The notes beneath the pieces are model-generated. The model saw only the letters and a program-made list of their open reading frames with translations. It was not told where the DNA came from and ran no database searches. Shown here piece after piece: positions 1-5,071 of a DNA stretch of 64,000 nt. The DNA is from Spirochaetia bacterium (GTDB lineage: Bacteria; Spirochaetota; Spirochaetia; UBA9216), in contig OY776510.1 in the NCBI GenBank assembly GCA_963675665.1, positions 3,552,001 through 3,616,000 of the forward strand, read 5' to 3'. Within the stretch, counting starts at the first letter, position 1. Every line of letters starts with the position of its first letter. The translations under genes and the position numbers were made by a program.

Positions 1-1951
1 CATATACTTTCGCAAGCTTTTCAGCGTACTCGCCCGGTTCCGCAATATTTTCAAGCTGATCAAGAATTTTCTGCGGAAAAATATGGGAAAAAAGAGCATC
101 TTCCCGATCTTTCAAAAGGTTCTTTCTCATTACTTCTACAGCATGCGAATAATTATGCAATGTTTCTCTCATTTTTGAATGCTGGTTTTCGATAATTTCC
201 TGAGCACGTTCAAGTTCCCGGCCGGCACGATGGTCGGCCAGCGGCTTATCGTCAGAAAACTTCAGAATCTTTTCCGGAATAAATTCCGCTATGCCGTATC
301 TTTGAAACAGTCGGTCTTCAAGACTTACAAGAAAAAGGCTTTCGCCCGGATCTCCCTGACGGCCCGCTCTGCCGCGCAACTGATTATCAATACGCCGGCT
401 TTCGTGCCTGTTAAGGCTGATAACAATTAAGCCGCCCAGGCTGGTAACAAAATCTTCATCAACACGTTCGGGCCCGCCCAGCAAAATATCAGTGCCGCGG
501 CCGGCCATATTTGTCGAAACAGTTACGGCGCCGGGCATCCCTGCATCGGCAATAATAACAGCTTCTTCGGCATCATTAACTGCATTAAGCACATTATGTT
601 TTATACCTTCCGCCAGAAGCATTTCAGATACATGTTCAGATTCATAAACCGAAGCCGTGCCTATCAAAACCGGGCGACCGACAATATTATATTGCTTAAC
701 CTTTTTTAGAAACTCGGTATATTTGGCTGCTTTTGTTTTATAAATAAGATCGGGATTATCTTTTCTTATTTTCTGCATATGCTCAGGAATAATAAATGTT
801 TGCATTCCATACTTTTTATAAAATTCTAACGCAGCAGATTCTGCTGTTGCAGTCATTCCTGAAATATTCGGGTAAAGTTTGACGAAATTTTCAATTGTTA
901 TGCTTCCGCATATTTCTCCGTTATTATTTATACTCAATCCTTCCTTGGCTTCCAATGCCCGCTGTATTCCGAAAGGCCATTCTCTTTTTTCAGCAACACG
1001 GCCGGTCAGTTCATCAACGAGCTCGATTTTATCTCTTCTGACGATATAGTCAATATTCCTGGAAAGAAGTTTTTCAGCATGCAATGCCACATTTACTCCT
1101 GCAACGGCATCCTGACCCTCAGGAGTTATTTCATCAACATCCAGTATATTGCAAATATGTTTTATTCCTTTTGATGTCAATGTACACTTTCGGCAAGTTC
1201 GATTAATTTGAAAATCTGTGCCGTCTTCAAGTTTATGGACTAATGACTCATAAAGAATGTGCCCGGCAAGTAAACCGTCTTTCTCTCTGGCAATAACAAG
1301 AGGAATTCGTGCTTCATCAATCAGAATGAAATCTGCTTCGTCTACAATGCAGTTTTCAAACCGTATATTAATTTTCAGTTTTTTGTTATACTGTATACAG
1401 TCGTTAAGATAATCAAAACCTGCCTGTTTGGCTGTAAGATATACAACATCAGCACGGTAGGCGGTTCTTTTCTCTTCAAGAGTCATTTTTTCATCAACAT
1501 AAGCGCAGTTTATTCCCAGTATGGAGTAAACTTCACCCATCCACATCGCATCACGTTTGGCAAGATATTCATTGGCTGTAAATATTGCAGTATGGGCTCC
1601 GTCTGCGGCATTAATAACAGCCGGAAAAACAGCAGCAATCGTTTTGCCTTCACCTGTTTCCATTTGTACAAGATTTTTTTCAAGCATTATTTTTCCGGCA
1701 ATTATCTGTTCAGAATAGGGTTGAATTCCGAGTGCCAGATTAACTGCTTTATTTATTGCAGCAAATTTTTCAGTCAAACTGCCGTTTGACATGTATTTTT
1801 TTATTACTTTTTTTGAGTTAGATGTAATTTTAATCGATTTTACTTTTTCCGCAAAATCAACATAATTCTGTAAATTAATATGTATGGGGATTCCCTTTGC
1901 ACGTTTGAGGGCATAATTCAACTGCTCTCCTGTGCTGTATCTGTTTTTCAT
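1..1951 (-). CDS. secA2: Accessory preprotein translocase ATPase, SecA paralog (SecA2-like); 3' end runs off the window
   Basis: Not in the ORF track because there is no stop in the window. Manual translation from ATG 1951 (SD GGAG upstream) gives MKNRYSTGEQLNYALKRAKGIPIHINLQNY..., Walker A METGEGKT (1640-1663), TANEYLAKRDA, IVDEADFILIDEARIPL (DEAD at 1331-1342), STNMAGRGTDILLGG and RHESRRIDNQLRGRAGRQGDPG; at least 650 codons. Confidence 0.93.
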   Translation of the reverse strand, partial: MKNRYSTGEQLNYALKRAKGIPIHINLQNYVDFAEKVKSIKITSNSKKVIKKYMSNGSLTEKFAAINKAVNLALGIQPYSEQIIAGKIMLEKNLVQMETGEGKTIAAVFPAVINAADGAHTAIFTANEYLAKRDAMWMGEVYSILGINCAYVDEKMTLEEKRTAYRADVVYLTAKQAGFDYLNDCIQYNKKLKINIRFENCIVDEADFILIDEARIPLVIAREKDGLLAGHILYESLVHKLEDGTDFQINRTCRKCTLTSKGIKHICNILDVDEITPEGQDAVAGVNVALHAEKLLSRNIDYIVRRDKIELVDELTGRVAEKREWPFGIQRALEAKEGLSINNNGEICGSITIENFVKLYPNISGMTATAESAALEFYKKYGMQTFIIPEHMQKIRKDNPDLIYKTKAAKYTEFLKKVKQYNIVGRPVLIGTASVYESEHVSEMLLAEGIKHNVLNAVNDAEEAVIIADAGMPGAVTVSTNMAGRGTDILLGGPERVDEDFVTSLGGLIVISLNRHESRRIDNQLRGRAGRQGDPGESLFLVSLEDRLFQRYGIAEFIPEKILKFSDDKPLADHRAGRELERAQEIIENQHSKMRETLHNYSHAVEVMRKNLLKDREDALFSHIFPQKILDQLENIAEPGEYAEKLAKVY

Positions 1952-2013
1952 TACTGCTCCCGGGCTTTAATTAATCTTTAGAGTCTTTATCAAGTCTTTT
2001 AACAGGAACAGTA
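1952..2013 (-). promoter_or_regulatory. Shine-Dalgarno-sequestering mRNA hairpin between the RAPP uORF and secA2
   Basis: mRNA 5'-UACUGUUCCUG-3' (2013-2003) pairs with 5'-CGGGAGCAGUA-3' (1962-1952): 11 contiguous pairs including 2 G-U, covering the GGAG SD. Confidence 0.75.
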
Positions 2014-2223
2014 TGGCGGGGCCCTTGTGTTTATATATATTGGAGATTCTTTCTTTCCGTAATAATTTTGGACAATTCCAGTTGCTGAAACAATCAATGC
2101 AAATAGAATGATGAAGATACCTGGTACCTCAGCATTAATACCGGAAACAGTTAACAGCATAATGACCAGAATTATTGCGGTAATAATTTTAATTATTTTT
2201 GAATGATGTATTCCGACCGGCAT
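1999..2223 (-). CDS. Putative translation-arrest (secretion monitor) leader peptide with signal peptide and C-terminal RAPP motif
   Basis: 74 aa; basic n-region, hydrophobic I13-V26, possible cleavage INA|E, second hydrophobic stretch 33-51, ends PIYINTRAPPYCSC; lies immediately upstream of secA2. Confidence 0.8.
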   Translation of the reverse strand: MPVGIHHSKIIKIITAIILVIMLLTVSGINAEVPGIFIILFALIVSATGIVQNYYGKKESPIYINTRAPPYCSC

Positions 2224-2259
2224 ATTATAAAATTAAACATTATATTCCGGGACCGTCAA
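2224..2259 (-). promoter_or_regulatory. Putative sigma70 promoter giving a leaderless transcript of the RAPP uORF-secA2 unit
   Basis: TTGACG (2259-2254)-N18-TAATTT-N6-ATG; no SD in front of the ATG. Confidence 0.5.
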
Positions 2260-2355: not shown

Positions 2356-2742
2356 ATGAAAAAGCTTACGCAATATCTTGCATCAATCGGTGCTGATAAT
2401 TATTTTAACGAGATGCGCCTTTCGATAAACGAACTTTTTCTCAGCGATGATATTGAAATAAATCCTTACACCGAACATAACTGGGAACTTCGTAAAAATA
2501 AAGATGTTACAGTCGTAAATGCTATTCCGGACAGTGAAAAACAGGACAGGCTTTTCTGGGAAGAGTGGTACATATATCAAAATGAGGTTCATCACCACAT
2601 TCTTACAATCTGGAAACCGGCAACTTATAATGATATTTTCGACTGCCCCGAATCAGATGATATTCATCCAGAAGCCAGTTTCGGCAAACGCTGGTATGTT
2701 ATTGACGATCCTGACATGACGCCGCTGCTTCTGAGGAGATAA
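2356..2742 (+). CDS. Hypothetical protein (128 aa, Trp/His/acidic-rich)
   Basis: Strong SD GGAGG 6-7 nt upstream, clean ORF in an intergenic gap; no family recognised. Confidence 0.75.
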   Translation: MKKLTQYLASIGADNYFNEMRLSINELFLSDDIEINPYTEHNWELRKNKDVTVVNAIPDSEKQDRLFWEEWYIYQNEVHHHILTIWKPATYNDIFDCPESDDIHPEASFGKRWYVIDDPDMTPLLLRR

Positions 2743-2763: not shown

Positions 2764-3960
2764 TCAGGATTTGTTTCTAACAACAGAAATTACTGAAAAT
2801 GCAACTGTCAAAACAGCTGCAGCTGCGGCCATTATAATGAATGCAGTTCTGAATGAATAAATCTCTGCTGCTGCTCCTATCATTGGAAAAAGGATAACCA
2901 TTAATAAGCTGAATATCATACTTCGAAACGACAACACAGTAGCACGAATTTCAGAAGGTATCATTTTATTAAGGTAATCCGATATAACAATGAAAGTGAC
3001 GCCTTCTATAAAGCCTGTTATTATAAAAAACAATGATTTAAAAGGTGTCACAGCGACTCCCCATAAACAAACGGTAAGCATTGATAAAAGAAAAATAAAA
3101 AGCCGTTTTTCCCCGAATTTTTTTTCAATCCAGGCTGCCGAAATCGATGACATTGCAGACAATCCGGCGGAAACTGCATATACAATTCCTATATAACTTT
3201 CTGCTTTACCGTTGAGTTTGAAGTAATTCTGTATGTAAAAGAACAGGCTTGTCGTAAAAGTCAGTATTGTCTCGGAAAATATAATCAGAAACATTATTCT
3301 TGGTTTTGATTTGACAAGCTTCAGGCTGTCAAAAAGTATCACGCCGAATTCCCTGATTCCATTGGCGGTTTTTCCCGAATGATCTTCAGAGTTTTTATTA
3401 AGATATGGTTCATTAAAGGTCAGTCCGGTTAAAAATGATATTATTACTGAACATCCGGAAAAAATGAATACATAATCATATCCCAGGTTTGAAGCTGTAA
3501 GCCCTCCCAGTGCAAATGAGATTATCATTCCGGATTGAAATGCCACTTCGGTAAAGCCTGCAATACGTTTATACCGGCTTTCTTCTCCGAGATATTTCAA
3601 TGTATCATAGGAAAAAGCTTCTCCCGCGCCCGATTCAAGATTGTACCCGAATGCGCAAACTGAAAAACCAATTGCCTGTAGAACAAAATTGTCGGCCGCC
3701 CACATTATTATCAGGCTAATAAAAAACAGCAAACGCCCTCCGAGCCTGCAGTACTTTCTGCCTATAAGATCGGCAAGGGCTCCGGACGGTATTTCAAAGA
3801 GCATTGAACTTATATGAAAAATACTTTCAAGAATTCCTAGTTCAATTAATGAGAAGCCTTTCTGTGCAAGGTATATCATCCATAACCCGGATGTAAATTG
3901 TACGTTTGAAAAGAAAACAAAAAGATAATTTTTTGGAATATTACGCCTGTAGTCCACCAT
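2764..3960 (-). CDS. MFS transporter (about 12 TM)
   Basis: Motif A-like EIPSGALADLIGRK, many hydrophobic helices, IPSEIRATVLS; start moved to ATG 3960 (SD AGGTG) from track start 3990. Confidence 0.9.
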   Translation of the reverse strand: MVDYRRNIPKNYLFVFFSNVQFTSGLWMIYLAQKGFSLIELGILESIFHISSMLFEIPSGALADLIGRKYCRLGGRLLFFISLIIMWAADNFVLQAIGFSVCAFGYNLESGAGEAFSYDTLKYLGEESRYKRIAGFTEVAFQSGMIISFALGGLTASNLGYDYVFIFSGCSVIISFLTGLTFNEPYLNKNSEDHSGKTANGIREFGVILFDSLKLVKSKPRIMFLIIFSETILTFTTSLFFYIQNYFKLNGKAESYIGIVYAVSAGLSAMSSISAAWIEKKFGEKRLFIFLLSMLTVCLWGVAVTPFKSLFFIITGFIEGVTFIVISDYLNKMIPSEIRATVLSFRSMIFSLLMVILFPMIGAAAEIYSFRTAFIIMAAAAAVLTVAFSVISVVRNKS

Positions 3961-4177
3961 AAAGACACCTATAAAAAGAGATATTTCCATTTTTACAGAT
4001 TAAATGACTATTCAAGCGCCACCGCTTCTATTCAGCCCGATTTTAACCTGGCTAAGATTATATTAGACATTTCCCCGGCTTGTCTACAAAATAACCACTA
4101 ATCTGATTGAACATTTTACTTCCGAAACTGTATACTGATTTCTCAGCTTCCAGTATAAATATCTTTCAGGAGTTTTA

Positions 4178-5071
4178 ATGCGGCAGGTACACAGACAAAT
4201 CCAGTGGTTTCCGGGACATATGAATAAAACCCGAAGACTGATTGAGGAACATCTCAGCAGAATTGACATTGTCGTTGAAATTCTTGATGCGCGTATACCG
4301 CAGTCAAGCCGGAATCCCCTGCTTGAAGAAATTACAAAAGAAAAGCCTGTTCTTCTTGTTCTGAATAAATCGGATCTGGCAGATAAACAACTTACAGCCG
4401 CATGGATAGAATATTATAAAAATGAAGGCTATCACTCGATTGCTGTTACATCAACCGAAACAAAAACAGTTACCGGCATATTAGGCAGTTGCCGTCAGAT
4501 TGTTGAAAACAGTACAGAAAAAACCGGAGCCAAAATAAATATTCTTGTAGCGGGAATTCCTAACGTCGGTAAATCGACAATTATAAATGCGCTGAAAAAG
4601 CAAAAGAAAGCTTCCGTTCAGAATAAACCCGGACATACGAAAGACTTTCAGCGAATAGTAATATCGAATACAATGACGCTCATTGATACGCCGGGTATCC
4701 TATGGCATAAATTTGAACCCGAAACAGGCTACAGACTTGCAGTTATGGGTTCAATCAGGGATTCCATTCTTGATATGTTCAATATTGCATCTGCAGCGCT
4801 TATTATGCTTAAAAATGCATACCCGCAATACCTTGCAGAAAGGTTTAACCTTGAAACTGATTCAATGCCGGATACTGAAGAAGAACTTATTGCATTGATA
4901 GGGCGCAGCCGCGGAATGCTTCAGAAGGGAGGAGTTGTCGATTTTGAAAGGGCATGTAATGTAATTGTCAGGGAAATACGCGACGGCAAAATGGGTAATA
5001 TGACTTTTGAATCCCCGGATATCTCGGATAAAAGGTTTTCAGCAAAAATATTTGAAAATCTGCAGCTTTAA
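4178..5071 (+). CDS. rbgA: Ribosome biogenesis GTPase RbgA/YlqF
   Basis: IQWFPGHM N-terminus, DARIP, NKSD, GIPNVGKST, DTPG; circularly permuted GTPase. Confidence 0.96.
   Translation: MRQVHRQIQWFPGHMNKTRRLIEEHLSRIDIVVEILDARIPQSSRNPLLEEITKEKPVLLVLNKSDLADKQLTAAWIEYYKNEGYHSIAVTSTETKTVTGILGSCRQIVENSTEKTGAKINILVAGIPNVGKSTIINALKKQKKASVQNKPGHTKDFQRIVISNTMTLIDTPGILWHKFEPETGYRLAVMGSIRDSILDMFNIASAALIMLKNAYPQYLAERFNLETDSMPDTEEELIALIGRSRGMLQKGGVVDFERACNVIVREIRDGKMGNMTFESPDISDKRFSAKIFENLQL

Follow-up and report, generated by a model that had tools for sequence, protein, structure and literature searches.

In this study, we analyzed a 64,000-nucleotide (nt) stretch of the genome of a Spirochaetia bacterium (assembly GCA_963675665.1, contig OY776510.1, positions 3,552,001 to 3,616,000; hereafter the window) and identified a small upstream open reading frame (uORF) directly in front of a gene for a second SecA protein, which appears to be tail-anchored. 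The encoded peptide of 74 amino acids (aa) ends shortly after the tetrapeptide R67-A68-P69-P70. Comparison of this locus with its relatives makes it probable, at roughly 80%, that the peptide is a regulatory arrest peptide (monitoring substrate) of the RAPP class and that it controls translation of the SecA paralog. Few systems let a nascent chain report on how a cellular machine is working, as arrest-peptide monitors do, and the present locus would add a compact one whose RNA switch is clear and testable.

The uORF, the candidate arrest peptide gene, is located at 1999..2223 on the minus strand and encodes the sequence MPVGIHHSKIIKIITAIILVIMLLTVSGINAEVPGIFIILFALIVSATGIVQNYYGKKESPIYINTRAPPYCSC. 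The codons of the motif (AGG GCC CCG CCA), read directly from the sequence, occupy 2014..2025 on the same strand, with R67 at 2025..2023 (AGG), A68 at 2022..2020, P69 at 2019..2017 (CCG), and P70 at 2016..2014 (CCA). They are followed by Y-C-S-C and a TAA stop codon at 2001..1999, and 47 nt separate this stop from the same-strand ATG at 1951 where the SecA paralog starts. The ORF boundaries, the 47-nt gap, and the position of the motif four residues from the end had all been given correctly in a preliminary description of the locus made from the sequence alone, which had also recognized the downstream gene as a SecA paralog; the genome does encode a second, canonical SecA with 38% identity to it.

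A terminal motif of this kind is scarce in the genome. In a six-frame scan of the 5.15-Mb sequence (one contig, 43.3% GC), R[AGS]PP was found within the last 16 residues of 10 out of 24,867 ORFs of 40-200 aa, and a hydrophobic stretch was also present in three of those 10, one of which is the 74-aa uORF. The other two, G000:C1:1657222-1657443 on the minus strand and G000:C1:5124838-5125200 on the plus strand, are outside the window. The former has no same-strand gene downstream, resembles a shadow frame, and was taken as a chance occurrence. The uORF itself belongs to no Pfam family and had no usable match in a protein atlas search. An Rfam search of 1800-2500 gave no match, and therefore no known riboswitch or leader is present in that interval.

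Relatives of the paralog were collected by scanning 185,579 species genomes with its paralog-specific C-terminal part; 500 were found and the best 80 were kept. Four of the 80 were removed, two because they are cut upstream (L036 and L059) and two because no SecA frame was found (L054 and L081), and the window was added to give a set of 77 loci, in which five named loci that duplicate sequences already found in the genomes compared were each counted once. The closest named relatives among the best 80 of the 500 are on contigs titled Spirochaetales or Spirochaetia. A frame with two hydrophobic segments and an R[AGS]PP end lies directly upstream of the paralog at 37 of the 77 loci, compared with 34 of the 6,401 other frames of 40-150 aa found there, although these counts overstate independence because several loci are near-copies of each other. 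Spirochaete-labelled loci have the uORF in 13 of 14 cases, or in 13 of 15 when the phylum sample is added; this sample of 400 further genomes contained only two paralog-like genes, neither with a uORF, and one of the two repeats the uORF-less named locus. The upstream DNA of homologs, which the preliminary description had proposed to inspect for a uORF with a RAPP-like end, thus bears out its expectation. The paralogs at spirochaete loci are 42-54% identical to that of the window in the five that were aligned. Among 40 related genomes, all have a match to a canonical-type SecA and five also have an ortholog of the paralog (46-55% identity); upstream DNA is present at four of these five ortholog loci, and all four have an ORF of 67-94 aa with two hydrophobic stretches that ends in RGPP or RSPP plus 2-5 residues. 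No comparable uORF is present upstream of the canonical secA of the window genome.

A FastTree phylogeny of 76 paralogs and eight spirochaete canonical SecAs places the paralogs on one side of a branch with a support of 100. The window is located in a spirochaete clade of 13 rows, also with a support of 100, in which the uORF is present in all 12 rows having upstream DNA. Elsewhere, 16 of the 17 rows of a Vicinamibacteria clade have the uORF, as do Aminicenantes, and it is missing from the Myxococcota, Bacteroidota, Bacillota, and Planctomycetota rows and from one large acidobacterial clade. At least five gains or losses are required on the paralog tree. No alternative conserved C-terminal motif was seen in the 29 of the 40 uORF-less loci that were inspected. 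An all-against-all BLAST of the flanking frames of the 13 spirochaete loci detected no conserved neighbor of the uORF-paralog module, and only the SecA gene and shadow frames matched. At one spirochaete locus (L096), the uORF frame is open for 321 aa upstream of RAPP, into the apparent end of another gene; the uORF probably begins at an internal ATG that is preceded, at 7 nt, by the promoter-like sequence TATACT. Two loci in the Vicinamibacteria clade (L095 and L103) are on contigs titled Bifidobacterium or Bifidobacteriaceae; this placement more likely reflects a binning or labelling problem than gene transfer.

The RNA around the end of the uORF has features centered on the putative stall site. 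Folding predicts a hairpin whose 5′ arm, UACUGUUCCUG, at 2003..2013 on the minus strand, is formed by the codons of Y71-C74 and would serve as an anti-Shine-Dalgarno (anti-SD) element, and whose 3′ arm, CGGGAGCAGUA, at 1952..1962 on the minus strand, covers the SD sequence GGGAG and the bases up to the paralog start codon. The stem consists of 11 bp, and the isolated hairpin has a computed free energy of -13.5 kcal/mol. Taken as a whole, the 146-nt stretch has a nil z-score, and the signal therefore resides in which bases pair, not in overall stability. Relative to the first base of the P-site codon, the 5′ arm occupies +6..+16, which is within or at the 3′ edge of the modelled -12..+15 ribosome footprint. 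A ribosome with Pro69 in its P site would cover 28 bases (2031..2004), and holding these single-stranded changes the mean unpaired probability of the SD arm from 0.025 in the free mRNA to 0.44.

Similar pairing is predicted at related loci. The minimum-energy fold pairs the SD with a sequence 0-25 nt after the RxPP codons in five of five spirochaete loci, with unrelated letters in each. A more demanding test asked how many pairs are expected to form between the footprint (-12..+15) and the SD/AUG window, relative to 100 dinucleotide shuffles of the upstream part; 33 loci were scored, and four further loci without a clear start codon were left out. The window locus has 10.0 expected pairs versus 2.1 in its shuffles, a value reached by none of the 100, and at 14 of the 33 loci the value was reached by at most five of 100 shuffles. 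Independently, the codons of the motif itself are biased: the first Pro codon of R-x-P-P is CCU in 20 of 37 uORFs, whereas CCU accounts for 101 of the 968 Pro codons (~10%) of the adjacent, mostly GC-rich paralog genes. CCU-CC can pair with GGAGG, and the stall codons themselves often form the anti-SD sequence CCUCC. An SD-sequestering hairpin with the post-RAPP codons as its 5′ arm, which the preliminary description had not noted, would fit a switch of the SecM type.

Because the hairpin arm lies in the last codons, where every passing or terminating ribosome would open it, the uORF might instead be a plain leader peptide, in which any translation opens the hairpin, Pro-Pro merely slows the ribosome, and the output reports general translation or the status of elongation factor P (EF-P). 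Di-proline is a generic pause site, and the stop codon comes only 1-11 codons after the motif, both of which suit such a leader. However, a generic poly-proline pause would require neither an Arg that never varies, two residues ahead of Pro-Pro, nor a middle residue limited to A, G, or S. The hydrophobic N-terminal segment at a fixed distance would have no role, and RAPP-type stalling is described as EF-P-resistant (PMC12992588). We regard a plain leader as improbable.

The encoded peptides share an architecture more than a sequence. By hydropathy, segment 1 of the window uORF spans residues 9-29 (2137..2199, minus strand), with the basic residues H6, H7, K9, and K12 before it, and segment 2 spans residues 31-51 (2071..2133, minus strand) and is followed by K57, K58, and R67. 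Members of the family have a short basic N-terminus, segment 1, a turn of a few residues, segment 2, a basic linker, R[AGS]PP, and 1-11 further residues to the end of the uORF. Only this architecture and R-x-P-P are kept, and the residues before the motif vary from locus to locus. The end of segment 1 is 40 residues from the P-site residue Pro69 (35-48 in those family members with two resolved segments), that of segment 2 is 18 residues away (13-32 in the family), and most members have the P-site residue at position 64-76. The basic residues before segment 1 and after segment 2 fit an N-in/C-in hairpin, and the conserved design points to a transmembrane (TM) hairpin that would monitor membrane insertion rather than secretion. 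The preliminary description had noted the second hydrophobic stretch and the distance of about 40 residues between the first one and the arrest site, both of which were confirmed. It had also proposed a cleavable Sec signal peptide (INA|E) and a secretion monitor. The N-terminal hydrophobic segment is indeed conserved, but the INA|E-type cleavage site is not conserved among the homologs, which have the two-segment design instead; likewise, arrest-peptide control of an accessory SecA agrees with the comparative tests, whereas the design favors a monitor of insertion.

This design could also be that of a stable protein, namely a two-pass membrane partner or receptor subunit of the paralog, with RxPP as a protein-level motif, no arrest, and the anti-SD pairing as ordinary translational coupling. 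Two hydrophobic segments are conserved though a monitor needs only one, the charge topology (basic N-terminal end and basic residues after segment 2) suits a stable hairpin protein, and the ORF is co-inherited with the paralog across phyla while no other neighbor is conserved. Nevertheless, beyond hydrophobicity the family keeps only R-[AGS]-P-P, which is the published stalling core and is described as strongly avoided in proteomes (PMC12992588). In addition, the distance of the motif from the N-terminal segment is constrained, and the CCU bias at the first Pro and the SD pairing are RNA-level features centered on the stall site. A partner protein in place of an arrest peptide thus appears unlikely, but the two readings are not mutually exclusive. 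The uORF with its RAPP end is not a product of chance: the proposal that it is an untranslated ORF with a coincidental RAPP in an AT-rich spacer, which would account for the lack of a protein-family or atlas match and of an SD sequence before its ATG, is close to refuted by the rarity of the terminal motif (10 of 24,867 comparable ORFs of the genome) and by the retention of the frame, the two hydrophobic stretches, and the motif in 13 spirochaete loci and other phyla.

Comparison of the loci also suggests where the transcript begins. A putative -35 hexamer of the uORF-secA paralog transcript, TTGACG, is located at 2254..2259, and a putative weak -10 element, TTAATT, preceded by TG-n as in an extended -10, is located at 2231..2236 (both on the minus strand). 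The spacer between them is 17 nt, and the -10 element ends 7 nt before the uORF ATG at 2223. Under strict criteria (-35 TTGnnn, 16-18 nt, and a TAnnnT-like -10 ending 5-9 nt before the start), this layout is present at seven of the 13 spirochaete loci; in 1000 shuffles, the number averaged 0.17 and never exceeded 2. An SD-like word (GGAG, GAGG, or AGGA, 4-17 nt before the start) is missing in 11 of the 13 spirochaete uORFs. The uORF is thus likely to be leaderless or nearly so; if confirmed, such a start would mean that monitors of this kind can work without a ribosome-binding site of their own.

We propose the following mechanism for the uORF as an arrest peptide. The uORF and the paralog gene would be on one transcript, which probably starts at or next to the uORF ATG and is leaderless. 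In the free mRNA, the computed 11-bp hairpin would pair the four post-RAPP codons with the paralog SD and keep it shut. A ribosome translating the uORF would stall with its P site occupied by peptidyl-R67-A68-P69-tRNA and its A site by Pro70-tRNA, as suggested by the motif and by the structures of ApdA, ApdP, and SecM; this site assignment on RAPP is taken by analogy from the cryo-electron microscopy of ApdA/ApdP (PMC10951233). According to the computed footprint, the stalled ribosome would cover the 5′ arm, and the SD would therefore be free while the stall lasts. At this point, segment 1, about 40 residues from the peptidyl-transferase centre, would just have emerged from the exit tunnel, which would still hold segment 2. 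Membrane insertion of segment 1 would pull the chain and release the stall, by analogy with SecM and MifM. Slow targeting or insertion would then prolong the stall and lead to more of the membrane-tethered SecA paralog; the insertion route that is sensed could be SRP/SecYEG, YidC, or the paralog itself.

Several observations weigh against this proposal. The -10 candidate TTAATT is weak, without A at position 2, a strict sigma-70 consensus scan found no promoter on the minus strand, and the window uORF has no SD sequence. The promoter elements proposed above come from a looser comparison of the loci, and a search for sequencing runs listed no RNA run containing the locus. The strict footprint test was passed (at most five of 100 shuffles) by only four of the 13 spirochaete loci, in part because the hairpin arm starts after the stop codon in some of them, as it does in L034 and L038, and almost no pairing is predicted at four of the 33 loci (L034, L042, L063, and L064). 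Segment 2 is not required by a simple monitor model. As many as 40 of the 77 paralog loci are without such a uORF, and the control is therefore dispensable for the paralog family; moreover, the related loci are not independent samples. Finally, the arrest strength of members of the RQH family of RAPP-like peptides differs between E. coli and B. subtilis ribosomes in the published assays (PMC10987492), and the presence of the motif therefore does not by itself ensure that a spirochaete ribosome would arrest.

The gene under the proposed control may be of greater interest than the peptide. The window contains the 5′ 650 codons of the SecA paralog gene (1..1951, minus strand); the full gene (L001 1096..3450) encodes 784 aa, and its end is outside the window. 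The protein matches SecA_DEAD (1.4e-73), P-loop_SecA (5.6e-61), and SecA_PP_bind (1.7e-22) in Pfam, and GEGKT, DEAD..IDEAR, and GRAGRQGDPG are invariant in an alignment of six paralogs, as expected for a motor of the SecA superfamily. The genome has two SecA genes, the paralog and the canonical one, which encodes 943 aa with a zinc-finger end, and only one SecY match was found in it. The paralog lacks the canonical N-terminal sequence and the zinc finger of the genome's own SecA. Near its C-terminus, the conserved motif STWTY..D.PF precedes a hydrophobic stretch of about 20 residues and basic residues. A hydrophobic C-terminal tail is present at 69 of the 77 loci, and three of the eight exceptions are truncated frames; the family thus looks tail-anchored, as far as can be judged from sequence. 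L074, L086, L101 (Planctomycetota-labelled), and L069 keep the TWTY motif or the uORF and have a tail that is basic and amphipathic-looking, not hydrophobic.

With regard to classification, the best NCBIfam model is the mycobacterial SecA2 model TIGR04221 (score 601.5, cut-off 725), which is only marginally above the ordinary SecA models (591.8 and 585.3). The other SecA2 models, TIGR03714 (489.3/930), TIGR04397 (523.2/1085), and NF012136 (406.1/1100), are also below their curated cut-offs, as are the ordinary SecA models. The SecA2 label used in the preliminary description can therefore be kept as a description, whereas none of the SecA2 models supports a formal assignment. The best match in the Protein Data Bank is M. 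tuberculosis SecA2 (4uaq_A, 420.7 bits over a single stretch, residues 62-749), followed by ordinary SecA structures (412 and 404.6), and in the protein atlas the C-terminal part of the paralog matched only generic SecA wing/scaffold clusters. Members of the family (L033-L112) are on contigs labelled Spirochaetota, Acidobacteriota, Aminicenantes, Planctomycetota, Myxococcota, Bacteroidota, Bacillota, and Ignavibacteriota. This is an uncharacterized SecA family with a hydrophobic C-terminal anchor that is patchily distributed in several diderm phyla, beside a normal SecA and one SecY.

The uORF and the paralog gene are flanked by genes for ribonucleotide reductase and an MFS transporter. A 128-aa ORF without a Pfam family (2356-2742, plus strand) is divergent from the uORF at a distance of 132 nt, and its neighbors are the MFS transporter (2764-3990, minus strand) and a YlqF/RsgA-type GTPase (4178-5071, plus strand).

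Known monitors are substrates of the pathway they regulate. The two TM segments and the short, fixed spacer therefore predict that the role of the paralog would be in membrane insertion, not secretion. Beyond this, we tentatively suggest that the uORF and the tail-anchored SecA gene form an old, horizontally moving two-gene cassette (Spirochaetota, Acidobacteriota, and Aminicenantes), in which a leaderless, MifM-like hairpin monitor of insertion failure would induce a permanently membrane-tethered SecA. Under stress, this SecA would back up membrane-protein biogenesis or clear translocons in diderms. This broader scheme is possible but on balance doubtful. If it is true, the cassette would for the first time give access to the function of a SecA2-type protein outside Gram-positive bacteria, and an accessory SecA under arrest-peptide control would likewise be a first. 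The uORF could also be used as a reporter for finding conditions that induce the paralog.

Fujiwara et al. screened more than 30,000 genomes for uORFs of secA, secDF, and yidC (Nat Commun 2024, 15:2711; PMC10987492), defined the RQH family of RAPP-like peptides, and reported arrest for representatives and secDF2 induction for one. As described there, RQH members are small unannotated uORFs of sec or yidC genes with an N-terminal signal or TM segment, a conserved R/Q/H-A/G-P-P C-terminus, and a spacer of more than 30 residues. The uORF in the window is unannotated and 74 aa long, with a hydrophobic segment at 9-29 (by hydropathy only), a conserved R[AGS]PP, and a spacer of 40 residues. Supplementary file 9 of that study includes a sole Spirochaetota entry, uA_RQH_Treponematales, which is marked as an orphan and has 74 aa with RAPP at 70 and a downstream ORF of 801 aa, together with two Vicinamibacterales orphans of the two-segment topology type2b, whose downstream product is given as ‘accessory Sec system translocase SecA2’. 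Orphans are defined as fewer than three per order, and these entries are outside the tested members. The main text of the article has 0 mentions of spirochaetes or paralogs, and its one ‘seca2’ word match is not evident as SecA2. The present locus is an additional member of the published RQH class, not a new class, from a lineage that was previously only listed. The idea of an undescribed family, raised in the preliminary description, is thus to be abandoned, as the class covers the uORF and a Treponematales orphan of the same design is already tabulated. Nevertheless, the spacer here is short and narrow (35-48 residues), whereas those of the published secA and secDF uORFs are long and variable. 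It was the present analysis that linked these uORFs to a single, distinct SecA family, apparently tail-anchored and spread over several phyla, and that suggested their leaderless layout.

In E. coli, SecM is encoded by a uORF of secA; the stalled ribosome opens an SD-sequestering stem-loop, and export of the nascent chain releases the stall (PMC10987492). The uORF in the window resembles it in being directly upstream of a secA-type gene and in its predicted SD-sequestering stem-loop. However, the uORF lacks the SecM arrest sequence FxxxxWIxxxxGIRAGP: it contains no Trp, reads KKESPIYINTRAPP, and ends with KKESPIYINTRAPPYCSC. Furthermore, SecM is secreted, its tabulated spacer medians are 71 or 131.5 residues, and the SecA that it controls is the housekeeping one, in contrast to the two segments, the 40-residue spacer, and the second SecA of the present locus. 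ApdA and ApdP (Sakiyama et al. 2021; Morici et al. 2024) share the R-A-P-P core with the uORF in the window. They are filed under secDF uORFs in the tables of PMC10987492, whereas the present uORF precedes a SecA paralog, and this comparison concerns motif and position only. Sakiyama et al. 2021 does not mention spirochaetes or SecA2. According to a recent study (EMBO J 2025, PMC12992588), RAPP and RGPP stall in many N-terminal contexts, RSPP is partly permissive, RAPP-type motifs are among the most avoided in bacterial proteomes, and the stalling is EF-P-resistant. The conservation of R-x-P-P alone, with variable preceding residues, matches the stalling across contexts reported there.

MifM-yidC2 of Bacillus subtilis is a membrane-insertion monitor with an N-terminal TM segment, and its SD-sequestering hairpin controls a second copy of an insertion factor. 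The uORF differs from MifM, which has one TM segment with an N-out orientation and a different, multi-site arrest sequence and controls YidC2, not SecA. In terms of geometry, the uORF is closer to the YidC monitors, which have short, narrow spacers (median 54 for MifM), than to the secA and secDF uORFs (PMC10987492).

The paralog can likewise be compared with known accessory SecA proteins. It resembles actinobacterial SecA2 in being a second, shorter SecA beside a housekeeping SecA in a genome with a single SecY. The differences are its SecA2 scores, which are barely above those of ordinary SecA and below the curated cut-offs, and the STWTY..D.PF motif with a hydrophobic tail. SecA2-SecY2 accessory systems include a second SecY and accessory genes, whereas the window genome has one SecY and no neighbor is conserved at the 13 spirochaete loci. 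Kamneva et al. described secondary SecA_DEAD proteins with type I secretion neighbors and reduced wing/scaffold regions in diderm bacteria (PLoS One 2015, PMC4452313). Both these proteins and the paralog are second SecA-like ATPases of diderms, but the paralog has no conserved neighbor, and the type-I-secretion-linked SecAs look like a different family.

Our search of the open-access and bioRxiv literature found no paper on arrest peptides of this lineage, arrest-peptide control of SecA2, a tail-anchored SecA, or a leaderless monitoring substrate. As far as these searches reach, the present locus and its relatives add to the published systems a single family of apparently tail-anchored, SecA2-like proteins with uORFs and, in these uORFs, a geometry suggestive of an insertion monitor (a putative TM hairpin with a short, narrow spacer). 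They also add an anti-SD design that appears to be centered on the stall site and a uORF that is probably leaderless.

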